Of a stretch of 57,573 nt of DNA, positions 2,987-43,532 are shown one piece after another (position 1 is the stretch's first letter; each line of letters begins with the position of its first letter). Source of the DNA: Coprothermobacterota bacterium (GTDB lineage Bacteria > Caldisericota > JANLFM01); NCBI GenBank assembly GCA_026389455.1, contig JAPLHV010000180.1, positions 1 through 57,573 on the forward strand. Direction: 5' to 3'. A program made the position numbers and the translations under genes. Under the pieces are notes generated by a model, which ran no database searches, was not told the DNA's origin, and saw only the letters and a program-made list of their open reading frames with translations.

Positions 2987-3331
2987 ATGAGAGTGATCAT
3001 TGCAGGCAGCCGCAGTTGCACTGACATACAACAAATAGAGGTTGCCGTTGCAGCCTCCGGCTTTAAGCCAAGCCTCATTATCAGCGGGTGCGCCAGGGGA
3101 GTTGACCGACTTGGCGAAACTTGGGCTTCCAACCATGGGATTCCCATAGAGAAATATCCAGCAAATTGGGACGCCTATGGCAAGTCAGCAGGGTACCGCA
3201 GAAACGCAGTTATGGCATCTAACGCCGATGTCCTCATTGCTGTCTGGGATGGGCACAGTCCCGGGACAAGACACATGATCGACACTGCCATTGGGATGGG
3301 ATTAAGTGTCTACATTCATCAGATCTCTTAG
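2987..3331 (+). CDS. SLOG superfamily protein (DUF2493/cpYpsA-like)
   Basis: MRVIIAGSR...IISGCARGVD...AGYRRNAVMA...WDGHSPGTRHMI; RBS AAGGAG. Confidence 0.85.
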   Translation: MRVIIAGSRSCTDIQQIEVAVAASGFKPSLIISGCARGVDRLGETWASNHGIPIEKYPANWDAYGKSAGYRRNAVMASNADVLIAVWDGHSPGTRHMIDTAIGMGLSVYIHQIS

Positions 3332-3776
3332 CTCAAACCAAGTGTTCGTTTTTGGATCAAACTCCACTGGATTTCATGGCGCTGGCGCTGCGGGATTTGC
3401 CTTCCGTGGCACTGCTGAAAACTCCTGGAGAAGTGATCCGTTCTTTCTGGCTGCCATGAAATCGCCGACCGGCAGCATGCTTCGCCTCGGCCGATGGGCT
3501 GTGTACGGAATAGCGCGTGGTTACCAGGTGGGTCGTGAGGGCAGATCGTATGCTGTCTGCACCATCGCTCGCCCGGGGCTGCTCAGGTCCGTCTCCTTGG
3601 ATGACATCAAGCAGCAGCTTACCGAGATGGCGAAGTTCGCCAAGCTCAACAGAGAGTTGCAGTTTCTATGCAGCAAAGTCGGATGTGGCCGCTCCGGCTA
3701 TGCGGAGAGCGAAATCATGGGCATTTGGCCAGAAATGCCAAGCAACGTGATCAATCCAAAGTGGTCAGAAAGGTAA
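3306..3776 (+). CDS. Macrodomain-like phage protein (A1S_2505-like)
   Basis: VFVFGSN..GFHGAGAA and KVGCGRSG motifs; start position uncertain. Confidence 0.7.
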   Translation: MSTFIRSLSSNQVFVFGSNSTGFHGAGAAGFAFRGTAENSWRSDPFFLAAMKSPTGSMLRLGRWAVYGIARGYQVGREGRSYAVCTIARPGLLRSVSLDDIKQQLTEMAKFAKLNRELQFLCSKVGCGRSGYAESEIMGIWPEMPSNVINPKWSER

Positions 3777-17687: not shown

Positions 17688-20600
17688 ATGCGTAGAATAA
17701 TTGTAGGAAAAGTAACCTGTCTCGTTCTGATTATCTTCATGATCTCCTCTGCTTTCGTCCCTGGTTTTGCGTCCGGACATGAAAACAACTCCGGGTTTGT
17801 TCCGGAATATTCCTCCATTCAATCCACAGTTCAAAATAACTCCCTGGCTGCCGGCGCTGGTCAGACCCTCGGCCTGAAGGGGGACGGCACGGTCTGGGTT
17901 TGGGGAGACAACGGCAATGGTCAACTGGGTTTGGGGGACACCACCGACCGATCCACCCCAGTGCAGGTCACTGCCCTGGGCAACGATATAACAATCTTAG
18001 AAGCAGGTTCATACCATTCCCTTGCCCTGAAGGGGGACGGCACGGTCTGGGCCTGGGGATATAACGGCAACGGCCAGTTAGGGTTAGGAGACAATACTAA
18101 TCGCTATACCCCGGTGCAAGTCACTGCCCTAGGAGACAACGTGGTGGCTCTGACAGCCAATGGAGGCCACACTTTAGCCCTGAAGGGGGACGGTACAGTC
18201 TGGGCTTGTGGATACAACGGCAATGGTCAACTAGGGTTGGGGGACACTGCTGACCGCTCCAGCCCAGTTCAAGTACTCGCCCTAGGCAACAACGTAAAAG
18301 CCTTGACTACTGGTGAGTACCATTCCTTAGCTCAAAAGGAGGACAGCACGGTTTGGGCTTGGGGAAAAAATGACCACGGTCAGCTGGGGCTGGGGGACAC
18401 CATCAGCCGCTTAACCCCGGTACAGGTCACTTCCCTGGGTAGCAACGTGGCGGCAATGGCTGCCGGTGGGATGCATACCCTATCTCTAAAGGATGATGGT
18501 ACAGTCTGGGCTTGGGGATGGAACAACAATGGTCAGCTGGGGCTGGGGGACACAACCGACCGTCTCAGTCCTGTTCAGGTCACCGCCCTGGGAAGCAACG
18601 AAGTAGCTGTAGCTGTCGGCTGGATGCATACCATAACTCTAAAGGATGATGGTACAGTCTGGGCTTGGGGATACAACGGCAATGGTCAGCTGGGGCTGGG
18701 GGATAACACTAACCGATCCAGCCCAGTTCAGGTGCTCGCTCTAGGTAACAACGTAACGTCCTTAACCACTGGCGAGTACCATTCCCTGGCCTCGAAGGAT
18801 GACGGTACGGTCTGGGCTTGGGGAATGAACAACCATGGTCAGCTGGGGTTGGCAGACACCACAGACCGCCTCAGCCCGGTGCAGGTGCCTACCTGGCAGA
18901 GTCCACTGAACCCTCCCTCTGGCCTCACCGCAACGGCCGTTTCCTCAGGCCAGATCAACCTCTTTTGGATGGATAACTCCGGCAACGAGGAGAGCTTCAA
19001 TCTCGAGCGCAAGACCGGCAGCGGGGGAAGCTGGTCGCAGATCGCCACTGTCGGTGTCAACGTCACCAGCTACTCCGACACTGGACTTGCTTCTAACACC
19101 CCCTATTATTACCGCGTCTGTGCCTTCAGGGCCGCCGGCAACTCAGTCTATTCCAATGAGGCTTTTGCCACCACTTCGAACAATACCCAATATAATCAAA
19201 CCTTATTCAGTGGCTGGAACATGGTTACAGTTGGATTGCAGACACCACTTGCTCCCGCCCAATTGTTCGGCTCTAGTTTCCAAGCAATCTACCGTTGGGA
19301 ACCGATTGGAGGAACATATTTTACGCCACAAGCGTTGGAACCTGGACTAGGCTACTGGGTGAAAATGGCAGCGGCTACGACGATAACTGTCCAAGGCACT
19401 CCCCTCGTTTCCCGAACCCTCCCGCTTTCTACTGGATGGAATCAGGTTGGCAGTCCCTTCGGCTCCATTACCCCCTGGTCCACGGTGAAAGTGGCAAAAG
19501 AAGGAACTGAGTACTCAATAATGGAGGCTAAGCTGGCCGGCTGGATCATTCCTGCCTACTCTTGGAACGGAACCTCCTATGATGTAATAGACTACGAATC
19601 CTCAGCGATGGGCGTGGGTCAAGGATTCTGGATCAAGGCCAATACCGCGGGGATGTCCTTTTTGTTTGGTAACCTTATTCCTTCAAAGGCTTCGATCGCA
19701 GCTGGAGCATTCCATACCCTTGCCCTGAAGGGGGACGGCACAGTGTGGGCATGGGGATCAAACAGTGATGGCCAACTTGGGCTGGGAGACGGAGCCACCC
19801 GCTACTATCCAGTGCAAATCACTAGCCTGGCTGATAATGTATCATCCCTGGCTGCTGGTGGGTACCATACTGTTGCCTTGATGAAAGATACCACGGTCTG
19901 GGCTTGGGGAAGCAATTTTTCTGGCCAGCTGGGAGTGGGGGACTCCACTTCCAGCAATAGCCCGGTACAGGTCACTTCCCTAGGTAGCAATGTAGTAGCT
20001 CTTGTCGCGGGATGGGGGTATACCCTAGCCCTAAAAAGTGACGGCACAGTCTGGGCTTGGGGAGAGAACAGCAATGGTCAACTGGGTTTGGGGGACACCA
20101 CTCATCGCTCCATCCCGGTACAGGTCACTTCCCTAGGAAGCAACGTGACAGCCTTGACCGCCGGTGGGTGGCATACCCTTGTGATGAAGGAGGATGGTAC
20201 AGTCTGGGCTTGGGGAAACAATGGCTCTGGCCAGCTAGGACTGGGAGACACCACCGACCGTCTCAGTCCTGTTCAGGTCACCGCCCTGGGAAGCAACGTG
20301 ACAGCTCTCGCCGCTGGCGGGGACCATACTTTGGCTCTGAAAAGCGACGGCACGGTCTGGGCTTGGGGATGGAATAGCAATGGTCAGCTGGGTTTAGGGG
20401 ACAAAACTAATCGCTCCATCCCGGTACAGGTCACTTCCCTGGGAAGCAACGTGACAGCCTTGACCGCTGGTGGGTGGCATACCCTTGCGATGAAGGAGGA
20501 TGGAACAGTCTGGACTTGGGGATGGAACAATCTTGGTCAGCTGGGGTTGGGGGACACCACCGACCGATCCACCCCAACAAAAATAACTTCCCTAAATGGC

Positions 20601-20759
20601 AATATGACAGGCTTGACCGCTGGTGGGTGGCAGACTTTTTCCGTGAAGGGGGATGGCACGGTCTGGGCTTGGGGCTGCAACGGCAACGGCCGACTGGGGC
20701 TGGGAGACACCACCAACCGTATCAGCCCTGTGCAGGTACCTATCAATCTCAACCCGTAG
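17688..20759 (+). CDS. Secreted RCC1/BLIP-II repeat protein with FN3 domain
   Basis: Signal peptide, ~7 RCC1 repeats (LKGDGTVWAWGxNxxGQLGLGD), FN3 (PSGLTATAVSS...YYYRVCA), then ~7 more RCC1 repeats. Confidence 0.92.
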   Translation: MRRIIVGKVTCLVLIIFMISSAFVPGFASGHENNSGFVPEYSSIQSTVQNNSLAAGAGQTLGLKGDGTVWVWGDNGNGQLGLGDTTDRSTPVQVTALGNDITILEAGSYHSLALKGDGTVWAWGYNGNGQLGLGDNTNRYTPVQVTALGDNVVALTANGGHTLALKGDGTVWACGYNGNGQLGLGDTADRSSPVQVLALGNNVKALTTGEYHSLAQKEDSTVWAWGKNDHGQLGLGDTISRLTPVQVTSLGSNVAAMAAGGMHTLSLKDDGTVWAWGWNNNGQLGLGDTTDRLSPVQVTALGSNEVAVAVGWMHTITLKDDGTVWAWGYNGNGQLGLGDNTNRSSPVQVLALGNNVTSLTTGEYHSLASKDDGTVWAWGMNNHGQLGLADTTDRLSPVQVPTWQSPLNPPSGLTATAVSSGQINLFWMDNSGNEESFNLERKTGSGGSWSQIATVGVNVTSYSDTGLASNTPYYYRVCAFRAAGNSVYSNEAFATTSNNTQYNQTLFSGWNMVTVGLQTPLAPAQLFGSSFQAIYRWEPIGGTYFTPQALEPGLGYWVKMAAATTITVQGTPLVSRTLPLSTGWNQVGSPFGSITPWSTVKVAKEGTEYSIMEAKLAGWIIPAYSWNGTSYDVIDYESSAMGVGQGFWIKANTAGMSFLFGNLIPSKASIAAGAFHTLALKGDGTVWAWGSNSDGQLGLGDGATRYYPVQITSLADNVSSLAAGGYHTVALMKDTTVWAWGSNFSGQLGVGDSTSSNSPVQVTSLGSNVVALVAGWGYTLALKSDGTVWAWGENSNGQLGLGDTTHRSIPVQVTSLGSNVTALTAGGWHTLVMKEDGTVWAWGNNGSGQLGLGDTTDRLSPVQVTALGSNVTALAAGGDHTLALKSDGTVWAWGWNSNGQLGLGDKTNRSIPVQVTSLGSNVTALTAGGWHTLAMKEDGTVWTWGWNNLGQLGLGDTTDRSTPTKITSLNGNMTGLTAGGWQTFSVKGDGTVWAWGCNGNGRLGLGDTTNRISPVQVPINLNP

Positions 20760-23886: not shown

Positions 23887-24448
23887 AGACATGCTGCCGC
23901 AGGCTGTTCTGCGCCGCCTTTCGAGATGATTCATCGATTTGTCGGCGGTTCCAACCACACGGCAGTTTGAGCGGTTGCCTGCTTAAAAAACCTTGCTATG
24001 ACGCCCTGCCGGGAGCTGACAACTTGATGCCTTTGACGTACAATAAGCGGGAGGTGATAACGAGATGATGAGAGAGATCGATATTGAGATGGGTAATCGT
24101 ATCCAATTCCTCATGAAACGACGAGCTTTGGCCTCACGAGAGTTGGCCCGGGATTTGGAGGTCAGTCCATCCAAGTTCTTTCACATCATCAACGGGAGAG
24201 CCGCCCTCAAGCCGGACTTGGCCGTAGCTCTGGCCAAGTATTTCAACATCACGCTGGACGAACTCTTCGGCCGGGCGCCGATGCCGAACGAGATCACTGT
24301 ACGAACGAAGTTGCCGCGCGGCTACACCCGGGAAACTTGGCAAGCCCACCTGCAGAAACTAGTCGACAGGATAGGCCAGCAACTCTTGGATCGACAAAAA
24401 GCCGAGAGAGCGAACAAGCTCTGAAGAAGACATGCTGCCGCAGGCTGT
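23887..24448 (+). repeat. 21-bp direct repeats AGACATGCTGCCGCAGGCTGT (23887-23907, 24428-24448) flanking the XRE gene, plus a variant core at 24006
   Basis: Exact sequence identity; members of the CTGCC-NNN-GGCT family. Confidence 0.85.
24065..24424 (+). CDS. XRE-family HTH regulator
   Basis: ELARDLEVSPS...IING...LAKYFNITLDELFG; RBS GGAGGTG. Confidence 0.85.
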   Translation: MMREIDIEMGNRIQFLMKRRALASRELARDLEVSPSKFFHIINGRAALKPDLAVALAKYFNITLDELFGRAPMPNEITVRTKLPRGYTRETWQAHLQKLVDRIGQQLLDRQKAERANKL

Positions 24449-26960: not shown

Positions 26961-27045
26961 GCGAAGGTGGCGGAATTGGCAGACGCGCTGGACTTAGGAT
27001 CCAGTGGTTCATACCATACGGGTTCGACTCCCGTCCTTCGCACCA
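26961..27045 (+). tRNA. tRNA-Leu(TAG)
   Basis: GCGAAGG...CCTTCGC-ACCA acceptor stem, anticodon TAG, long variable arm, GGTTCGACTCC. Confidence 0.96.
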
Positions 27046-27133
27046 CCTTATTAGCCCCCGGCAGGGTGTTCTGTGCCCCACGCCGCGCACTTTCCCGGCG
27101 AGGGAAAGCCGCCCTAGATAGAGAGGTGAAATT

Positions 27134-33399: not shown

Positions 33400-35246
33400 G
33401 CCCAGAAGAGGCCATTCAGCAACCCCCACCTCAAGCTATCGCTGCCTTGATTGCAGACCGGCTTGTCGACGTAGATCAAGCGCTGGGGAAAAGCAACATC
33501 ACTTGGGTGACTGCGGACACCCCGGCGGGGTTGGAAGTCCTCCGCCACTCCACCTCCCATCTGATGGCGCAGGCTGTTCTTGATTTGTACCCGAAGGCCA
33601 AGCTGGCCATCGGACCGGCCATCGCCGATGGATTCTACTACGATTTTGATCTGCCGCGGCCGCTCTCCGCTGAAGACCTCCCGCGGATCGAAGAGCGCAT
33701 GCGCCAGTTGGCCGAGGAGAACAGCCCTTTCGAACGTCGGGAGCTCTCGCGTGAGGATGCCCTGGTCTGGTTTGCCGACCACAATCAGGACTACAAGGTG
33801 GAGTTGATCAACAATCTGTCGTTGGACGAATTGATCAGCCTCTACCAGAACGGCTCTTTCGTCGATCTCTGCCGGGGGCCTCATGCTCCCTCCACCGGTT
33901 CCTTGAAGCATTTCAAGTTGCTTTCCGTGGCCGGCGCCTATTGGCGGGGAGACGAGCATAAGGCGATGTTGCAACGCATCTATGGCACGGCCTTCGCCAG
34001 CGAGGAAGCCCTCAAGGAGCATCTTTGGAAACTGGAGGAGGCGGCCAAGCGCGACCATCGTCGGCTGGGCAAAGAGATGGACATCTTCTCTACCCACCCG
34101 GCCATCGGAGCCGGCCTGATCCTCTGGCACCCGGCCGGCTCGATCGTCCGCCACGAGATCGAGAACTTCTGGACCGAACAGCACCTCAAGCGTGGCTATC
34201 AGTTGGTTTATACTCCGCACATCGCTTCTGAAGAGATATATAAGGTCTCTGGTCACCTGGAGGCCTACGGCGAGATGATGTACGCCCCGATGGACATTGA
34301 CAGCCAGCCTTACCGGGTAAAGCCGATGAACTGCCCCGCGCACATCTGCATCTTCCAGAGCGCTACGCGCAGCTACCGCGATTTGCCGATCCGCTATGCC
34401 GAGCTGGGGACAGTCTACCGTTACGAGCGCTCCGGCGTCCTGCATGGGCTGTTGCGGGTGCGCGGCTTCACTCAGGACGATGCTCATGTCTTTTGCCGCC
34501 CGGAGCAGTTGAAGGATGAGGTCCATCAGGTTCTTGACCTCACCGAGTTCATGATGAAGACCTTTGGTTACCGCTATCAGGCTTTCCTCGCCACTCGCCC
34601 GGCGAGGTCCATCGGTTCGCAAGAGGAGTGGACCTTCGCCACCGATACTCTGCGGCAAGCCTTGCAGGAACGGGGAATGGACTACCAGCTAGACGAGGGT
34701 GGCGGCGCTTTCTATGCGCCGAAGATCGACATCAAGTTGTGGGACGCCCTAGGCCGCAGTTGGCAAGGCCCCACCTGCCAGGTCGACTTGAACCTGCCGG
34801 TTCGTTTCTCTATCGCCTACATGGGCGAGGACGGTCGCGAGCATCGCTGCGTGATGATCCACCGTACCGTGCTGGGAAGCATGGAGCGTTTCATCGGCGG
34901 CTTGCTGGAGCACTATGGCGGCAATTTCCCCCTTTGGCTGGCTCCCCGTCAGGCGGTGGTAATCCCCATCACCAGCCGCCACCAGCCCTACGCTCAACAT
35001 GTAGCCGACGCCTTGCGCGAGGTCGGGATGCGGGTGGAGGTCGACGCCCGTTCCGAGAAGATGAACGCCAAGATCCGCGACGCAGAGATGCAACGGATTC
35101 CCTTCGCCTTGATCGTGGGCGACCGGGAAGCTGAAGCGGAAGCGGTCTCGGTGCGCCGCAAGGGGAAAGGCGACCTGGGTTCCCAACCGCTCGCCAGCTT
35201 GGTTGCGGCGATGCGCGAGGAAGTTGCCGGCCGCAGCCTGGGCTAA
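33396..35246 (+). CDS. thrS: Threonyl-tRNA synthetase
   Basis: RHSTSHL, DLCRGPH, RDHRRLG, KPMNCP and RVRGFTQDDAH motifs. Confidence 0.97.
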   Translation: MSPEEAIQQPPPQAIAALIADRLVDVDQALGKSNITWVTADTPAGLEVLRHSTSHLMAQAVLDLYPKAKLAIGPAIADGFYYDFDLPRPLSAEDLPRIEERMRQLAEENSPFERRELSREDALVWFADHNQDYKVELINNLSLDELISLYQNGSFVDLCRGPHAPSTGSLKHFKLLSVAGAYWRGDEHKAMLQRIYGTAFASEEALKEHLWKLEEAAKRDHRRLGKEMDIFSTHPAIGAGLILWHPAGSIVRHEIENFWTEQHLKRGYQLVYTPHIASEEIYKVSGHLEAYGEMMYAPMDIDSQPYRVKPMNCPAHICIFQSATRSYRDLPIRYAELGTVYRYERSGVLHGLLRVRGFTQDDAHVFCRPEQLKDEVHQVLDLTEFMMKTFGYRYQAFLATRPARSIGSQEEWTFATDTLRQALQERGMDYQLDEGGGAFYAPKIDIKLWDALGRSWQGPTCQVDLNLPVRFSIAYMGEDGREHRCVMIHRTVLGSMERFIGGLLEHYGGNFPLWLAPRQAVVIPITSRHQPYAQHVADALREVGMRVEVDARSEKMNAKIRDAEMQRIPFALIVGDREAEAEAVSVRRKGKGDLGSQPLASLVAAMREEVAGRSLG

Positions 35247-35252
35247 AAGAGC

Positions 35253-35360
35253 AGTGGTTTAGTGGTTAAGTGGGTCAGTAGGTCAGTGGATAAGTAAATA
35301 AGCTGATCAATGAGAATTACTCGACCACTTAACCACTGAATTACTCAACTACTTAATTAC
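35253..35360. repeat. Inverted arrays of degenerate 8-bp repeats
   Basis: AGTRGNNN-like unit x6, then complementary ...ACCACT/ATTACT units x5-6. Confidence 0.7.
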
Positions 35361-36374: not shown

Positions 36375-36740
36375 ATGAGCCGTATCAAAGGCGGGGTGGT
36401 ATCCCATCGCCGCCATAAAAAGATCCTGAAGCAAGCCAAGGGAACTTGGGGTTCCAGCCACGTGCGTATCCGCGTGGCCAAGCAGACTGTCATGAAAGGC
36501 CTGCAACATGCCTACGAGGGCCGCCGCCTGCGCAAGCGGGACTTTCGCAGCCTCTGGATCCAGCGTATCAACGCTGCCGCCCGGATTCAGGGCCTTCCCT
36601 ACAACAAACTGATCGCCGGCCTGAAAGTGGCGGGCGTGGTGATCGACCGGAAGATGCTGGCCGAGATCGCCGTCAACGATCCAGCCGTCTTCGGGCAGCT
36701 AGCCGAGATCGCCAAGGCCACTATCAGCAAGCCCAGCTAA
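36375..36740 (+). CDS. rplT: 50S ribosomal protein L20
   Basis: [18 protein letters not shown] and [10 protein letters not shown] motifs. Confidence 0.97.
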
Positions 36741-36742
36741 CC

Positions 36743-37870
36743 TTGTCTAAACACCCTGCCGGGGGCTATCTTGCTGCCGGGGGCTATCTTGCTGCCGGGG
36801 GCTATCTTGCTGCCGGGGGCTATCACCCTGCCGGCCAAAAAGAGCTCCACTCGGATTGGGCTATTATCGCCCAGGATCAGCTTGCGGAGGAATGCCGGAA
36901 GACCGAAAGCCTTAGCCAGTTGGAGGAGCTTCGTGTGCGCACCCTGGGCAAGAAAGGACAGCTCACGGCTCTCCTGCGCAGATTGGGAGATTTACCTTCC
37001 GAGCAGCGCAGGGACGCCGGCGCCCGCTTGAACCATCTCAAGCAATCGCTGGAGGCGATCCTGGCAGCGCGGGCCGAAGTTCTTGAGGAAGCAGCCATCA
37101 GTCGCCGCCTCCTGGCGGAGCGGGTAGACGTCACCCTTCCCGGCTTCCAGGTGCGCGTCGGACACCGCCATCCGTTGTGCCGCACCCTGGAAGGGATCGA
37201 GGATATCTTCCTCTCCCTCGGTTTCGACATCGTCGAAGGCCCGGAGGTGGAGTGGGACAGCAACAATTTCGAGGCATTGAACATGCCTGCTGAACACCCC
37301 GCCCGCGATATGTGGGACACCTACTACATCACCGAGCGGATGCTCTTGCGCACCCACACTTCCCCGGTCCAGATCCGCACGATGAAAACGAGAAAGCCGC
37401 CAATCCGGGTCATTGCTCCCGGTATCACCTACCGCCACGAGGCCATTGACGCCACCCACATGGATATCTTCTACCAAGTTGAGGGGCTGGTGGTGGACAG
37501 GGGGATCTCCTTCGCCAATCTCAAGGGAGTCCTCAGCCTTTTCGTGGCCGAGGCCTTCGGGCCGGAGCGGATCACCAAGTTCGTCCCCAGTTATTTCCCT
37601 TTCACCGAGCCCTCAGCCGAGATGATGGTCTCCTGCGGACTGTGCGGCGGGGAGGGTTGTTCCGGCTGCGGCCATTCCGGTTGGTTGGAGATCATGGGCT
37701 GTGGCCAAGTGCATCCCCAAGTGCTGCGCAACTGCGGCATCGACCCGGAAGACTTCACCGGTTTTGCTTTCGGCATGGGGGTGGAACGGATTGCCATGTT
37801 ACGCTTCAACATCCCCGAGATCCGCCTCTTCCTGGAGAACGATAGCCAGTTCCTGAAGCAATTTCCATGA
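36743..37870 (+). CDS. pheS: Phenylalanyl-tRNA synthetase alpha subunit (TTG start inferred; in-frame repeat near N terminus)
   Basis: HPARDM, LRTHTSPVQ, YFPFTEPS and GFAFGMGVERIAM motifs. Confidence 0.93.
   Translation: MSKHPAGGYLAAGGYLAAGGYLAAGGYHPAGQKELHSDWAIIAQDQLAEECRKTESLSQLEELRVRTLGKKGQLTALLRRLGDLPSEQRRDAGARLNHLKQSLEAILAARAEVLEEAAISRRLLAERVDVTLPGFQVRVGHRHPLCRTLEGIEDIFLSLGFDIVEGPEVEWDSNNFEALNMPAEHPARDMWDTYYITERMLLRTHTSPVQIRTMKTRKPPIRVIAPGITYRHEAIDATHMDIFYQVEGLVVDRGISFANLKGVLSLFVAEAFGPERITKFVPSYFPFTEPSAEMMVSCGLCGGEGCSGCGHSGWLEIMGCGQVHPQVLRNCGIDPEDFTGFAFGMGVERIAMLRFNIPEIRLFLENDSQFLKQFP
36750..36836 (+). repeat. Tandem 18-bp array CTGCCGGGGGCT-ATCTTG (4 full + 1 partial)
   Basis: Read directly from the sequence. 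Confidence 0.92.
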
Positions 37871-40302
37871 AGATCCCCTATTCCTGGTTGGAAGAGATCA
37901 ACGGGCGCCTGCCGTCGCCCGGCGAGCTGGCCGACCTCCTGCTGAGCGCCGGACTGGAGGTGGAAGAGACGCTACCGTTGGCTTGTCCCTTCAGCAAGGT
38001 AGTGACAGCTCGCATCATTGCCATGGAGACCATCCCTGGTGATCTGCATAATCTTCTCGTGCGCGTCGAGGCAGGTTCCCTGGGCAACTTTCAAGTCGTT
38101 AGCGGGGCGCCCAATCTGGCTGTCGGCCTGGTGGCGCCGTTGGCTCTACCCGGATCGATTCTACCGGGCTTGGTTATTGAGCGCCGAACCTTCAACGGTC
38201 TGGAATCCGAGGGGATGCTCTGCTCGCGAGCCGAGTTGGGGCTCGAGAAGGAGCTTCTCCCCCTGGGCGAGGAAGGGGTCGCTGTTCTGCCCGAGGAGAG
38301 CCCGCTCGGCGCTGACCTGGGTGGGCTGCTGACACTCCCCGATACCCTCTTCACCATTAAAGTCACCGCTAACCGCCCGGACTGGAACTCAGTCCTTGGC
38401 ATCGCCCGGGAGATCGCCGTCTTCACCGGTGAGCCTCTACGACCCCTGCTTGAGTTCCACGGGCGCGAGGATCCCACACCTGCTTCCACCCTAGTGGCAG
38501 TCGAAGTGGAGGATCCACTCCTCTGCCTTCGCTACTTGGCCACCGTGATCTGCGATACTCGGATTCAGCCTTCTCCCTTATGGATGGCCGGCCGTCTGTG
38601 GAAGAGCGGGATGCGCCCCATCTCCAATGTCGTCGATGCCACCAACTACGTCATGCTGGAGGTCGGCCAACCGCTTCACGCTTTTGACCTGGACCAGGTA
38701 ACCGAGCGGCGCATCGTTGTCCGCCGAGCCCGGCCAGAGGAGACTCTGGTGACCTTGGACGGAGCCAACCGAACCCTGGCCGGCAGCGTTCTCTTGATCG
38801 CCGATCCGCAGAAACCTCTAGGCATCGCCGGGGTGATGGGCGGATTGAACAGCGAGATGACCTCGGCCACGCGGAATCTGGTCCTGGAATCCGCCTTTTT
38901 TCAAAATGCCTCCATTCGTCGCACCAGCCGCTTGTTGGGCCTTAAGACAGAGGCCTCTGAGCGTTTTGTGCGGGGCGTTAGCCATCATAGTGTGGAGGAA
39001 GGCTCTCGCCGGGCCACTGCCATGCTCTCCACCCTAGCCGGCGGCCGAGTTCCGGCCGGCCGCGTGGACTGCGGCCAACCGCCGCCGCCCAAGCGCCTGC
39101 GACTTCGTCCTGAGCGGACCAACCAGGTCTTGGCCACCGACCTCTCCCGCGAGGAGATCTACACCAGTCTGGACCGTTTAGGTTTTTCCCCGACTGGTGC
39201 GACCGTCTTTGAAGTCGAGTCGCCCCCTTGGCGGCAAGATCTCCATGAGGAAGTCGATCTGATCGAGGACATCGCTCGCCTCATCGGCTATGACCGGGTG
39301 CCTCGTCGTATGCCGGCCGGTCCGCTGCGGCGCGGTCAAGAGCCCCCCTGGCGACGCAAATGGCCGGAATGGCGTTCCTTTCTACTGGGGCAGGGGCTGA
39401 CTGAAGTGGTCACCGCTCCCTTGGTTCCACCAGAGTGGAATACCTTCACCTTCCTCAAGGTTGATCAGCCCTTGGCTTCAACGATTGATGCTCGCGGGCA
39501 GGCACTCGCGGACAGGCCCTCAATGGTCTTGCGCAACCCCATTTCTCCTGAGCGATCTGCCCTGCGGCTAAGTCTCCTGCCCTCTCTTCTGCAGGTAGTG
39601 GCCACCAACCAACATCGTGGCCACCCTCTCTTCGGTTGCGTGGAGTTGGGGAAAGCCTACCGATGGCGAGGGGAGGAGGAACTGCCCGATGAGCCGCGCT
39701 TGCTTGCCCTGGCTGTAGCCGTGCGGACAGAGGCGGATTGGCAGGGGGGAATTCGGGAGATGAGCTTTTTCCGATTGAAGGGTTGGTTGGAGACGCTCTT
39801 TAACGAGGAGCTGCGTTTTCAAACGATACCGTACGAACATGCCTTACACCCCGGCCGCAGCGCTGCCCTCTTTCACAAAGACCGTCTAGTAGGCGTTTTT
39901 GGCGAGGTTGGTCCCGCCCTGGGCAAGCGCTTCGCGTTGAAGGAGGGAGTCTTGCTGGCTGAGATCGCCATTGAATCATTCCTCGCTCAAGCTATGCCTC
40001 TTTTCCAATCTTTTTCACGCTTTCCCGCCGCCGATCGTGACATAGCCCTGGTGGTCTCTACCGATACTCCCTACAGCCAATGGGAACAGGTCATACGGGA
40101 GGCAGGGGGGCCGCTTCTCGAAGAGGTTGCCTTCTTCGACCGCTACCAGGGCGAGAACATTCCTCCTGGCACGATAAGCCTGGCTTTCTCTTTACGATTC
40201 CGGAACAGCGAGCGGACCCTCGCCGAGGCGGAAATCAACCGGGCGATGGTCTCCATTGAATGCTCCCTGGCGGATCTGGGAGCGGTCCTGCGCAGCCGTT
40301 GA
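37867..40302 (+). CDS. pheT: Phenylalanyl-tRNA synthetase beta subunit
   Basis: [33 protein letters not shown] and [11 protein letters not shown] motifs. Confidence 0.96.
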
Positions 40303-40356
40303 GGGAGGTTCCCGAGACCTTCTTAAATGGCGACACGCTGACCGTGGCACTAGAAG

Positions 40357-40422
40357 ACATGCTGCCGCAGGCTGGGTACATGCTGCCGCAGGCTGGGTAC
40401 ATGCTGCCGCAGGCTGGGTACA
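40357..40422 (+). repeat. Three tandem 21-bp units ACATGCTGCCGCAGGCTGGGT
   Basis: Read directly from the sequence. Confidence 0.92.
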
Positions 40423-40452
40423 ACGGCGCACTGCTCTTTCATCAAAGCGCAG

Positions 40453-40577
40453 AACTCCCTGCCGGGGGCTATCGAGCTGCCGGGGGCTATCGAGCTGCCG
40501 GGGGCTATCGAGCTGCCGGGGGCTATCGAGCTGCCGGGGGCTATCGAGCTGCCGGGGGCTGTCTAGCTGCCGGGGGG
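40453..40577 (+). repeat. Tandem 18-bp array CTGCCGGGGGCT-ATCGAG (6 cores + 1 partial)
   Basis: Read directly from the sequence. Confidence 0.92.
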
Positions 40578-41171
40578 TTCATCGTCGAGACAGAAGCCTA
40601 CCTTGGATCTGACGACCGAGCCAGCCACGCCTCGCACGGACGTACCCGCCGTAATGAGACAGCCCCCGGCAGGGAGTTCTCAATGTTTGGGCCGCCCGGA
40701 TTTGCCTATATCTATCCACCCTGCCGGGGGCTGTCTAGTTGATCTATGGGATGTACAATTGCCTTAACGTGGTCACTGAACCGGAAGGCTATCCCGCAGC
40801 GGTGCTGATTAGAGCTCTGGAGCCCTGTATAGGCCAGAACTCCCTGCCGAGGGCTGACAAGCTGCCAGGGGCTACTGTGATGCGCCGTCGAAGGCCACGG
40901 GCAAGGCGGGAGGTTGAAGTAGCCAACGGTCCCGGCAAAATCTGCCAGGCGTTGGGGGTGGAACGAGGGATGAACGGATGGAACTTGCGCACAAGCGCTT
41001 TGCGCCTTGCCCCAGGGCGCGAAGCAGGGGAGATCGGGGCCGGACCACGGATCGGCGTCGACTATGCCGGGCCGTGGACTGGACACCCTGCCGGGGGCTA
41101 TCATGCCTGGCGCTTCTATGAACTTGGTAACAGAACAGCCCCCGGCAGGGTGTGACTTTCAAGGTGAGATC

Positions 41172-43532
41172 ATGGATGCCCACGCGCTGAGAGTGCTGGA
41201 CTTTCACGAGATCGTGGAGAAGCTCCTGGAGTTGACCCTAACCCCTTACGGGCGGGAGATTGCCGAGAAGCTGACCCCCTCGATGAAGCTGGAGGAAGTG
41301 CAGAAGGGTTTGCAGGAAACAACCGAAGCCCGCGAGTGGCTGGATAAGTTTGGCGATTTCGGCTGGGGCGAGCTCTTTGACCTGCGCCCCGTCTTGGCGA
41401 AGTGCCGGGTGAGCGGGATGCTGGCACCCGAGGAGTTGCTCCACGTCAAATCCTTCCTCGTTCTCCTGCGCCAGATCAAGAACAAAATGATGGAAGCGCG
41501 GGCGTACGCCACTTTGACCGGTTTGGCCAAGGAGCTTCACGCCCTGCCATCTTTAGAGAAAGAGATTGAGAAGGCCATCGGACCGAACGGTGAGATTCTG
41601 GATGGCGCCTCCTTCGAGCTGTTGCGCTTTCGCAAGCAATCACGCTTGATCGAGAGCCGTCTGCGCGACAAGCTGCAGGATCTGATCGAATCTCCTTCGG
41701 TGCGCAAGCTGTTACAAGACCCCATCATCACCGTGCGAGACCAACGCTTTGTGATCCCAGTCAAACAGGAGTACAAGTCTCAGCTTCCCGGGGTGGTCCA
41801 CGACCGCTCTTCCTCCGGCCAAACCGTCTTTCTCGAGCCGTTGGCTACCCTCAATATCAACAACGAGCTGCGTGAGGTTCAACTGAAGATCAAGCAGGAA
41901 GAGGAGCGCATCCTCGTCGAGTTGACTGTCAAGGTGGGGGAGCTTGTTCCGGATTTTAACCGCTCTTTGCAGAATCTGGCCCGCCTCGATTTCATCTTCG
42001 CCAAAGCCCGTCTTTCCGACCTGCACAAGGCCAGCCCCCCACTTGTTTCGAACGGCGCTTTCCTTGAACTGTACAACGCTCGCCATCCCTTGTTGCGAGT
42101 GCCCGCTGTGCCGATCGGAATTGATGTGGGCGGCAAATTCCGCACCCTCGTGATTACCGGCCCTAACACCGGTGGAAAGACCGTCTCTTTAAAGACGGCC
42201 GGCCTGTTGATGCTGATGGCCCAAGCCGGTTTGCATATCCCGGCCTCTTCCCAGTCGCAGATCGGAATCTTCCAGAACGTCTACGCCGACATCGGCGACG
42301 AGCAATCGCTAGAGCAATCGCTTTCCACTTTCAGCTCCCACCTCTCCCAGATCGTCAAGATCATCAAAGAGGCCGAGCCCAATATGCTGATCTTGTTAGA
42401 TGAGCTGGGGGCGGGCACCGATCCGCGAGAAGGCGCCGCCCTGGGAACGGCGGTGTTGGAGTATTTCCATAACCGAGGGGTGCGCACCATCGTCTCTACT
42501 CACCATACCGAGTTGATCTCCTTCGCCTATACCCACAGTGACGCCCGCAACGCCTCACTGGAGTTCGATACTGAGACGCTTTCTCCGACTTACCGCATGA
42601 AGATGGGAGTGCCCGGCTCGAGTCACGCTTTCCTCATTGCCAAACGACTGGGCCTCTCCACAGAGGTGTTAGCCCAAGCCCAGACCTTCCTGACTGTCGA
42701 GCGCGAGCGCCTCGACGAGTTGATCACGCACCTGGAGGAGGAACGGCAGAAAGCTGAGATCGAGCGCAAAGGGGCCGAGGAGGCAAAATCGGAGGCAATC
42801 AAGCTGCGGGAGGAGTACAAGCAGCAGAGTGAGGAACTGAAGAAGAAGAAGAAAGAGATCCTCCGCTCTTCGTATGCCGAGGCGCAGAAAGTGGTCAACG
42901 ATACGCGCAGCCAGATGGAAGCTCTGCTGGAACAGTTGCGCCAGGAGAAACGACCCTCATCCCGCACCGTGGCCATCAAGAAGGAGATTGAGCAGGCACG
43001 GAACGAGGTCGGCGAGCAAGCGATGGACACCGACCGGCGCGGCCTGCCCGTGTCTCTTGCTAAGTTGCGGCCTGGAGAAGTAGTGTGGATCCCCCGCTTT
43101 AAGTCGCAGGGAGTGATCATCGAGATCGACCTTACTGCCGCCCGGGCACGGGTACAAGTGGGCACGATGCGGGCGTCGGTGACCGAGAAAGAGATTGAGG
43201 CGCTGGAAGGGGGAGAGCCGCTTTCCACTATGCGGGCCTCTCCTGCATTATCCGATGGGGATCGCCCTATCCTGGTGGCTCGACCCGACCTCTCTTGGAA
43301 GTTGGATTTGCATGGGGTACGAGTAGAAGACGCCTTGGTGACGCTGGATAAATACCTAGACGATGCCGTTCTGTCCAACTTCCCCTTCGTCTATATTCTT
43401 CACGGGCGGGGAACAGGAGCTCTGCGACAGGCCATCCGCCAACATCTCCGTTCGCATCCCTCGGTGTTGCGCTTCCGCATGGGGGAAGGGAATGAGGGCG
43501 GCGAGGGTGTCACCATCGTCTACCTGAAATAA
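41172..43532 (+). CDS. mutS2: MutS2 (Smr-domain) protein
   Basis: HDRSSSGQTVFLEP, ITGPNTGGKT, LLDELGAGTDP; Smr LDLHG...HGRGTG. Confidence 0.95.
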   Translation: MDAHALRVLDFHEIVEKLLELTLTPYGREIAEKLTPSMKLEEVQKGLQETTEAREWLDKFGDFGWGELFDLRPVLAKCRVSGMLAPEELLHVKSFLVLLRQIKNKMMEARAYATLTGLAKELHALPSLEKEIEKAIGPNGEILDGASFELLRFRKQSRLIESRLRDKLQDLIESPSVRKLLQDPIITVRDQRFVIPVKQEYKSQLPGVVHDRSSSGQTVFLEPLATLNINNELREVQLKIKQEEERILVELTVKVGELVPDFNRSLQNLARLDFIFAKARLSDLHKASPPLVSNGAFLELYNARHPLLRVPAVPIGIDVGGKFRTLVITGPNTGGKTVSLKTAGLLMLMAQAGLHIPASSQSQIGIFQNVYADIGDEQSLEQSLSTFSSHLSQIVKIIKEAEPNMLILLDELGAGTDPREGAALGTAVLEYFHNRGVRTIVSTHHTELISFAYTHSDARNASLEFDTETLSPTYRMKMGVPGSSHAFLIAKRLGLSTEVLAQAQTFLTVERERLDELITHLEEERQKAEIERKGAEEAKSEAIKLREEYKQQSEELKKKKKEILRSSYAEAQKVVNDTRSQMEALLEQLRQEKRPSSRTVAIKKEIEQARNEVGEQAMDTDRRGLPVSLAKLRPGEVVWIPRFKSQGVIIEIDLTAARARVQVGTMRASVTEKEIEALEGGEPLSTMRASPALSDGDRPILVARPDLSWKLDLHGVRVEDALVTLDKYLDDAVLSNFPFVYILHGRGTGALRQAIRQHLRSHPSVLRFRMGEGNEGGEGVTIVYLK

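Follow-up and report, generated by a model that had tools for sequence, protein, structure and literature searches.

Copies of an 18-bp mini-repeat at seven sites in the mpg gene of an uncultured lake-sediment bacterium

Introduction

Very short repeats inside bacterial genes are known, among them repetitive extragenic palindromes (REPs) and Rickettsia palindromic elements (RPEs). Their route of entry into genes is unsettled, and the REP literature assumes a REP-associated tyrosine transposase (RAYT). In the sections cited here, Di Nocera et al. 2013 (PMC3733652) describe intragenic REPs with GTAG or CGTC tags that lie wholly inside open reading frames (ORFs) and encode extra residues. Double hits occur in uvrA and uvrB, DNA synthesis and repair genes are prominent, and genes inactivated by REPs are argued to be mostly lost from populations. 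RPEs (Ogata et al. 2000/2002, as presented in the cited part of PMC10969869) are selfish repeats inserted in frame into housekeeping genes and compatible with the protein fold. Here we describe a mini-repeat with an 18-bp period that occupies seven sites of one DNA glycosylase gene, mpg. The gene lies in the first 57,573 bases of contig C145 (the window), part of a metagenome-assembled genome (MAG) of an uncultured lake-sediment bacterium. This genome, G000 (2.63 Mb in 263 contigs, 57.6% G+C, 89% complete), is compared with three congeners from the same genus, G001, G002 and G003.

Like the intragenic REPs of 20–40 bp in the cited sections of PMC3733652, the mini-repeat is very short, high-copy and lineage-specific, with copies inside ORFs. 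Major differences can be observed. The units measure 18–23 bp when inserted, have no significant hairpins, and no cognate transposase was found for them in G000. They stack head to tail with a period of 18 bp, whereas head-to-tail dimers are described as absent or rare in the cited part of that account (PMC3733652). One gene of 0.86 kb holds seven inserts, one of them apparently disabling. The units form no stable palindrome and are not predominantly extragenic; the family fails the REP tests of palindrome and extragenic location, and an association with a RAYT is not convincing. As with RPEs, units are inserted in frame into unrelated genes. RPEs, as characterized in the cited part of PMC10969869, are palindromic, about 100–150 bp long and encode a conserved peptide, whereas the units described here span 6–8 codons, occur in six orientation and phase classes and form tandem arrays.

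Results

mpg is divided between two reading frames

Between pheT and mutS2, the two halves of a gene match PF02245 (Pur_DNA_glyco) in two different frames. The frame 40260–40742 covers profile positions 26–67 with 46.1 bits and the frame 40739–41155 covers positions 68–180 with 101.3 bits, against a curated cut-off of 27 bits. NCBIfam identifies both halves as DNA-3-methyladenine glycosylase, each under the full-length cut-offs, and no other PF02245 match is present in G000. The nearest solved relative of the intact Mpg of G001 is human AAG (3QI5/1F4R/1BNK; 1EWN is also an AAG structure), to which residues 9–188 of the G001 orthologue align with an E-value of 1.8e-32. The gene is, by sequence, a formerly ordinary conserved 3-methyladenine DNA glycosylase gene. 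It comprises the following features.

40299..41155, plus strand: mpg remnant (PF02245 in two frames, NCBIfam, alignment with seven orthologues).
40299..40742, plus strand: upstream open frame, the N-terminal third of Mpg including IVETEAY, with inserts 1–3; its end falls inside or after insert 4.
40739..41155, plus strand: downstream open frame, starting at TTG 40739, with inserts 5–7.

The orthologues are 185–193 residues long as aligned, or 225 residues in G002, which carries an insert array. In the window no single uninterrupted frame of about 190 residues remains: a 23-bp insert breaks it, and the copy carries 88 additional in-frame codons. IVETEAYLG is retained at the motif position of the orthologues, and we take the Glu of ETEAY to be the catalytic residue, as in human AAG. 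A conserved LIG motif and the Pro of PWRF are lost. The likely start codon, TTG 40299, overlaps the stop of pheT (TTGA). At the split, TTG 40739 overlaps the upstream TGA at 40740–40742, a GGGGG lies 9–13 nt upstream, and IYGMY... continues exactly with native sequence.

Seven inserts are built on one unit

Insert boundaries were set by alignment of the DNA with G001–G003 and of the protein with seven orthologues from three genera. Relative to these orthologues the window copy contains seven extra segments of 63, 108, 21, 23, 36, 18 and 18 bp, all built on the core CTGCCGGGGGCT or its CA variant. The segments below were delimited by the alignments, and inserts 1 and 2 also by Tandem Repeats Finder.

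40355..40417, 63 bp, plus strand: insert 1, a 21-bp unit three times, with the CA-variant core CTGCCGCAGGCT.
40454..40561, net 108 bp, plus strand: insert 2, an 18-bp unit six times, CTGCCGGGGGCT followed by ATCGAG, with GTCTAG in the last unit.
40660..40680, minus strand: insert 3, a single 21-bp unit, AGAACTCC followed by the core and G.
40717..40739, plus strand: insert 4, a single 23-bp unit, CACC followed by the core and GTCTAGT.
40840..40875, net 36 bp, plus strand: insert 5, two decayed 18-bp units with one core mismatch each.
41082..41099, plus strand: insert 6, a single 18-bp unit, GACACC followed by the core, inside WT/DQPWRF.
41136..41153, minus strand: insert 7, a single 18-bp unit at the C terminus.

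Except for insert 5, the inserts are exact copies of units found at 6 to 148 copies in the genome. Insert 1 adds 21 residues and turns the conserved LIG motif into YNG; its 21-mer has 6 genomic copies. Insert 2 adds 36 residues directly before GFIVETEAY, on a native stretch that resembles the unit in register, and its 18-mer has 148 copies. Insert 3 places seven residues before MFGPPG (exact 21-mer, 21 copies). Insert 4 (exact 23-mer, 9 copies) causes the frameshift and splits the AYIY/LIYGMY block, next to what we presume to be the DNA-intercalating tyrosine, Tyr162 of human AAG. Insert 5 is a unique string in the genome, homologous to a five-unit array at the matching site of G002. Beside insert 6 (exact 18-mer, 100 copies) are two changes, Q>H and P>A, the latter at the Pro of (K/Q)PWRF, which is otherwise invariant. 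Insert 7 replaces the ending ...NLSR-stop by ...TAPGRV-stop, and its exact 18-mer, with 101 copies, is also inserted at C77:15143.

The core is strongly enriched. At up to one mismatch the window contains 23 matches to CTGCCGGGGGCT where 0.74 would be expected; none of 100 shuffles reaches 23, and 14 of the matches fall at 40459–41148, within mpg. Tandem Repeats Finder reports period 21 at 40357–40422 (3.1 copies, 100% matches) and period 18 at 40459–40576 (6.6 copies, 98%).

A first-pass annotation, made from the sequence alone, had named the gene as mpg and described seven insertion sites with near-exact boundaries, and the profile matches and both alignments agree with it. It had also noted the 21-bp array of three units, the 18-bp array of six and the C-terminal copy, all of which are found. 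Motifs are restored on removal of the inserts as it proposed (RNET/MFG, AYIY/LIYGMY, GQ..MRRRR, WT/DQPWRF), and only the 23-bp insert shifts the frame, the other six lengths being multiples of three. Its lengths for the 21-bp and 23-bp inserts were correct, but the best alignment places both one base further right. The alignment with orthologues that it called for found none carrying inserts 1–4 or 6; G002 carries inserts 5 and 7.

Sites 2, 3 and 5 coincide with, or fall close to, indels between bacterial Mpg and human AAG, which fits toleration in loops. This comparison replaced an AlphaFold model from a 9-row alignment, which was unusable (mean pLDDT 40.1). The neighbouring genes carry no repeat units.

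37867..40302, plus strand: pheT, intact, zero repeat units (B3_4, tRNA_synthFbeta, FDX-ACB, B5, tRNA_bind).
41172..43532, plus strand: mutS2, intact, zero repeat units (MutS_V, MSSS, Smr).

Contigs from two studies contain inserts 3–7

Support in sequencing data was assessed on Logan contigs. A single contig of 3,047 nt from run X2 covers 40547–41400 with no difference. In run X9, from another study, two contigs cover 40547–40849 (2 differences, 0 gaps) and 40820–41373 (0 differences). Inserts 3–7, including the frameshift, are spanned by contigs of both runs and are unchanged, so they are no assembly artefact; this also answers the first-pass annotation's question of read support. No single contig spans either tandem array, so the copy numbers of three and six are those of the assembly only. 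Runs X10 and X11 cover mpg just in parts. In X11, a contig from a relative about 91% alike joins 41081 to 41156 by 38 other letters, indicating that sites 6 and 7 are empty there. An allele lacking just the 23-bp insert, which the same annotation suggested looking for, was not seen among the contigs, from which rare variants drop out.

The inserts differ in age

Inserts 1–4 and 6 are specific to G000 and have perfect cores. G001 lacks all seven inserts. G003 lacks any in the part of the gene on its contig, which ends within the gene and is therefore uninformative for inserts 6 and 7. G002 has five perfect 18-bp units at site 5, where a rare GACAAG linker and an ACTGTG tail are common to G000 and G002, which shows that the site was inherited rather than hit twice. 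Insert 7 is likewise common to G000 and G002, and mpg of G002 is one open frame. Inserts 5 and 7 are accordingly homologous in the two species, older than the others and compatible with an open gene.

With the inserts excluded, the ratio of non-synonymous to synonymous substitution rates (dN/dS) of mpg is 0.24 between G000 and G001, and 0.13–0.19 in other pairs. Branch values are about 0.25 for G000 and about 0.23 for its intact sister G001. This similarity indicates no long relaxed period and points to a recent loss of function. Most of the divergence thus appears to have built up under constraint, and we infer that mpg is now non-functional and was recently disabled.

It is plausible that the gene is dispensable. 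Related-genome comparisons used 31 genomes including G000, 25 of them at least 90% complete. PF02245 is found in 8 of the 31: G000 and 7 of the 8 other members of its family, and none of the 22 in other families. In profile searches G000 has an AlkD-type PF08713 gene and two HhH-GPD genes; Tag was not found in it.

An abundant repeat in one genus

The core CTGCCGGGGGCT is the commonest 12-mer of G000, with 837 exact copies, followed by the variants CTGCCGCAGGCT (246) and CTGCCGCGGGCT (143). With up to one mismatch it has 1,298 copies, against 7 for a reversed control. The exact cores form 397 loci, 230 single and 167 arrays, and 361 of about 460 adjacent exact-core pairs are spaced by 18 bp. 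A single copy consists of the head CAGRACNCC, the core CTGCCGGGGGCT and the tail RTCNAG; the 18-bp core and tail part stacks head to tail, and arrays have the head once.

The three congeners contain 69 (G001), 86 (G002) and 219 (G003) cores. Two genomes of one neighbouring genus have 5 and 1, and the other 25 relatives have none. Among the matches listed from species-representative genomes, 49 of 59 stretches fall in four MAG records and 10 are single occurrences in unrelated taxa. On these counts the repeat is confined to one genus. Nothing in Rfam reached a gathering score (the best, His_leader, had 32.1 bits against 49 and was taken as chance). Literature searches brought up no account of this repeat or a similar one in this bacterial group.

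Counting cores with up to one mismatch together with the CA variant, and merging neighbours, gives 826 loci, or 0.31 per kb. With seven loci in 857 bp, mpg is among the roughly ten densest stretches. Of these, C162 and C126 are long-period arrays split by the merging rule, and C87, C23, C149, C46 and C259 have no long open frame.

Further copies occur in the window. At 36752–36834, between rplT (36375–36740) and pheS, there are four 18-bp units CTGCCGGGGGCTATCTTG and a partial unit; the array is also present in G001 and G002 with fewer units. The pheS gene lies inside the frame 36446–37870, in the gene row infC-rplT-pheS-pheT. A single minus-strand unit at 27050–27072 lies directly 3' of a tRNA-Leu gene (26961–27045); it is absent from G003 and G002, and G001 differs there. 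G000 and G003 share a 23-bp CA-type unit at 24424–24446 (AGAAGACATG, CTGCCGCAGGCT and G) that G001 and G002 lack; its boundaries, CTGA/TCTAC, are clean. The sequence CTGCCGGGGGCC at 33869–33880 belongs to native coding sequence, is conserved with little or no change across all four species and is no insert; near-matches to the core can therefore be false positives.

Other repeats are present as well. Opposed arrays of 8-bp units, AGTGGTTA and ACCACTTA, lie at 35253–35360, and arrays of this type accompany the mini-repeat at C210, C88 and C16, which suggests modular composite repeats. Abundant short repeats elsewhere in G000 include AAATCTGTCCCC (374 copies) and GCCGCACTGGGG (191). Coding repeats of 153 bp at 17865–18886 and 19961–20713 (6.7 and 4.9 copies, about 71% alike; Tandem Repeats Finder) have the consensus WG.N..GQLG, which we read as RCC1-type blades.

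Units turn over rapidly and are widely tolerated in genes

We compared 684 repeat sites, of which 98 have both flanks in G003. The repeat is equal in length in both species at 36 sites, longer in G000 at 33, longer in G003 at 13, and missing from G003 at 16. Length therefore differs at 62 of the 98 orthologous sites, including 46 where both species keep the repeat. Clean inserts at empty sites have the same sizes as in mpg: 18 bp at C77:15143 (the 18-mer of insert 7) and C37, 21 bp at C174:29975 and C210:29720 (with the boundaries of insert 3), and 23 bp, of CA type, at C175 and C67. Others measure 24 bp (C238:6853), 81 bp and about 200 bp.

Stop-free frames of at least 150 residues contain 61% of the loci, against 86% of random positions. 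Confident ORFs of 250 residues or more contain at least 231 of the 826 loci, with each of the six orientation and phase classes represented (chi-square p=0.004). They fall in 164 ORFs, 37 of them with two or more loci; some of these frames may be made by the repeat. Unit spacings are multiples of three in 98% of cases in coding-like DNA and 77% in non-coding-like DNA, a contrast that is partly circular because frame-breaking arrays shorten the frame used for classification.

In-frame units are thus widely tolerated, and for this reason the six in-frame hits do not prove that mpg was already dead when they arrived. The first-pass annotation had explained the hits either by a dispensable gene collecting insertions that are purged elsewhere, at a high rate, or by a hotspot. 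The high rate is supported by the 62 sites of differing length, 16 of them empty in G003, and dispensability is plausible given the distribution of PF02245 and the AlkD-type gene. Simple purging elsewhere does not fit the loci in long ORFs.

Another repeat-decorated DNA-repair gene may be present on C182. The frame 2925–3835 matches GIY-YIG at 3330–3422 with 23.7 bits, at profile positions 2–32 only, and resembles an N-terminal portion of UvrC, with two in-frame units (TPCRGLSS and TPCRGLG) inside it and further arrays upstream. For ylxP, a search of G000 with PF04456 gave no match up to an E-value of 0.1.

Discussion

Taken as a whole, the account that we consider probable is that seven copies or arrays of the mini-repeat entered mpg and that the gene was killed recently; templated copying as their route is proposed with low confidence. 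In-frame units would have been tolerated while mpg worked, as in many other genes. The frame-breaking 23-bp copy would then have persisted because the gene is dispensable. On this proposal, copies already in the genome would serve as templates, by template switching or by short-patch gene conversion where homology is short or arises by chance, and array length would be altered afterwards by slippage. The spread would have taken place in a lineage without MutS and MutL, through neither cut-and-paste nor a dedicated transposase.

Several targets are consistent with copying from a template. The native site 2 of G001 reads CAGA, six nucleotides and TGCCGGGGGG, ordinary TDGLAGG codons that match the unit in register. 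In four cases (mpg sites 2 and 5, C210:28026 and C55:6350) the target ends in CAGA or CAGGA exactly where the insert begins with ACNCC. At 7 of 11 clean sites, judged by eye, the target continues after the insert with a T, as the unit itself would. Where arrays have gained a unit, it often belongs to another subtype than its neighbour, as at C210:14436 and C210:3309. Neither MutS_I nor MutL_C was detected in any of the 31 genomes, with the same searches positive in 11 of 14 control genomes. The group thus seems to be without canonical mismatch repair, even though MutS2 adjoins mpg. This background is permissive, but it cannot explain why the repeat is limited to one genus.

Other observations weigh against this account. 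The matches at junctions were selected post hoc, by eye, from about a dozen sites. In a general test, the similarity between target and unit at the 16 sites empty in G003 was 12.25, against 12.15 for 20,000 random positions (Mann-Whitney p=0.77). Because of this negative test and the by-eye nature of the junction evidence, we put templated copying forward only tentatively, well short of an even chance, as the best available mechanism. The turnover comparison with G003 covers just 1.19 Mb in 142 stretches. Outgroups prove polarity for mpg only, and sites empty in G003 could be deletions. The dN/dS values are based on 189 codons, and the read evidence consists of assembled contigs, from which rare alleles drop out. 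The TTG/TGA overlap and the GGGGG could in principle allow a two-piece protein. Finally, mpg of G000 is nearest to that of G001 (dS 0.28, against 0.57 for G002), yet inserts 5 and 7 are shared with G002. To resolve this conflict, one has to assume recombination, loss in G001 or parallel gain. Along 39300–42600 the identity to the three congeners is mosaic: pheT is nearest to G003, mutS2 and the 5' half of mpg are nearest to G001, and over the 3' half of mpg neither G001 nor G002 is nearer than the other. The simplest reading of the mosaic suggests recombination among congeners.

An alternative that we regard as unlikely is that the units are REP-like elements moved through single-stranded DNA by a Y1 (HUH) transposase of the RAYT or TIRYT type, with the hits in mpg simply not removed. 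G000 has ten Y1_Tnp matches, four of them full-length and RAYT-like. A protein on C112 reaches 68.7 bits with NCBIfam REP_Tyr_transpos (below the cut-off of 80), and a two-unit array lies 150 bp downstream of a RAYT-like gene on C148. Intragenic REPs, including double hits in DNA-repair genes, are known from the cited sections of PMC3733652, and the TGTC in many unit copies recalls the CGTC/TGTC tag described there. Several observations speak against this alternative. The inserts with their flanks fold at -2.2 to -4.4 kcal/mol, no better than shuffles (z -0.66 to +1.15). Across 213 solo units, head and tail pair at 2.62 of 6 positions against 2.42 in permutations, and no covariation was seen at (-6,+14). 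The ends are ragged, at -8, -6, -5 and -4 from the core on the 5' side and +11, +12 and +18 on the 3' side. No target-site duplication was found at mpg sites 3, 4, 6 and 7, nor at C174, C77 and C210:29720. Orientation shows no bias against local GC skew (Fisher p=0.22), and neighbouring loci run in the same direction in 203 cases and in opposite directions in 218. Transposase number does not follow the repeat, since 10 Y1 matches go with 69 cores in G001 and 2 with 219 in G003; Y1_Tnp occurs in 21 of the 31 genomes, whereas the repeat is genus-limited. Flanking of the Y1_Tnp genes by the unit is not convincing: five of the ten loci have no core, at up to two mismatches, within 3 kb. Head-to-tail arrays are dominant here, in contrast to the REPs of PMC3733652, and the repeat flanking the RAYT-like gene on C148, GGGGCGGGTTT..AAACCCGCCCC, is another one and truly palindromic.

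Within C148:1–1100, the RAYT-like gene (38–640) is followed by two copies of the perfect palindrome GGGCGGGTTTGAAACCCGCCC, which belongs to a separate repeat family, AGGGGCGGGTTT, with 124 genomic copies. On this arrangement, that palindrome is the likelier partner of the C148 enzyme.

There is a small chance that mpg is a true local hotspot, attracting the repeat regardless of selection through its resemblance to the unit, through units that seed others, or through its position between pheT and mutS2. Its seven loci in 857 bp stand against a genome mean of 0.31 per kb and about 0.95 per kb in non-coding-like DNA (19% of the 826 loci in about 6% of the genome). At site 2 the native sequence already forms a proto-unit in register, G002 too has inserts at sites 5 and 7, and loci also cluster elsewhere, at C87:3847–4767 and C23:9273–10382. 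On the other hand, the flanking pheT and mutS2 have no units, the general test of target similarity was negative, and the shared rare linker indicates that site 5 was inherited. Other open frames hold up to 5–7 loci, some of these frames perhaps made by the repeat.

That the gene is still used is very improbable. The 23-bp insert would then have created a coupled pair of ORFs whose products reassemble, the in-frame loops being neutral or useful. The overlap of TGA 40740–40742 with TTG 40739 does mirror the TTGA junction of pheT and mpg, with the GGGGG at 9–13 nt, and the downstream frame resumes at a native residue. The dN/dS of about 0.25 and the presence of the allele in two studies are in keeping with use. 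The split, however, falls in the most conserved strand, AYIY/LIYGMY, and adds eight foreign residues; the conserved LIG and Pro are also lost, and the TTG/TGA overlap follows simply from a native out-of-frame TGA and one T of the insert.

The chance that assembly or binning produced the inserts is negligible, despite the fragmented MAG and the unbridged arrays, as independent contigs reproduce inserts 3–7, G002 carries homologous inserts at sites 5 and 7, and the unit family occurs in four genomes of the genus.

The family can also be set beside other short repeats. As in the REPIN/RAYT system, in the cited parts of Bertels & Rainey 2011 (PMC3116915) and Nunvar et al. 2010 (PMC2817692), the core is the most over-represented short oligonucleotide of its genome and RAYT-like genes are present. 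Unlike in that system, no inverted doublets were seen and no single-copy RAYT flanked by this unit; the RAYT-like genes are multi-copy and uncorrelated with the repeat. With no target-site duplication and weak complementarity between head and tail, it does not resemble a miniature inverted-repeat transposable element (MITE). It behaves as a coding minisatellite or variable number tandem repeat (VNTR) in its period of 18 (361 of about 460 pairs), its variation at 46 of 98 sites and the 2 versus 5 units at site 5, but unlike a plain VNTR its units appear de novo at empty sites. Capture of fragments by end joining was considered and set aside, Ku (PF02735) not having been found in the four genomes of the genus (74–89% complete).

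Returning to the account of templated copying, mpg offers a clean record of a genus-specific repeat in coding DNA: seven base-exact insertions in one small gene, with empty sites surviving in sister species. It shows a tiny repeat that is apparently still being copied into working genes, and at site 2 one native sequence seems to have seeded an array. For annotation, many odd low-complexity loops and some frameshifted genes of such genomes will be products of the repeat, around which gene callers will split or extend genes.

Since the repeat fails tests of hairpin, strand bias and fixed ends and shows no convincing link to a transposase, a copy-choice route without a transposase becomes testable. 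It is possible, if doubtful at present, that this 18-bp sequence propagates itself without a transposase and places Pro/Gly-rich six-residue loops in hundreds of proteins, in any phase. The path in mpg would then lead from a native look-alike that seeds an array, through tolerated in-frame units, to an off-length copy that kills the gene. Among bacteria, such a repeat would correspond to the mobile GC clusters and palindromes known from organelle genomes, and it would supply proteins with indel variation from a new source.

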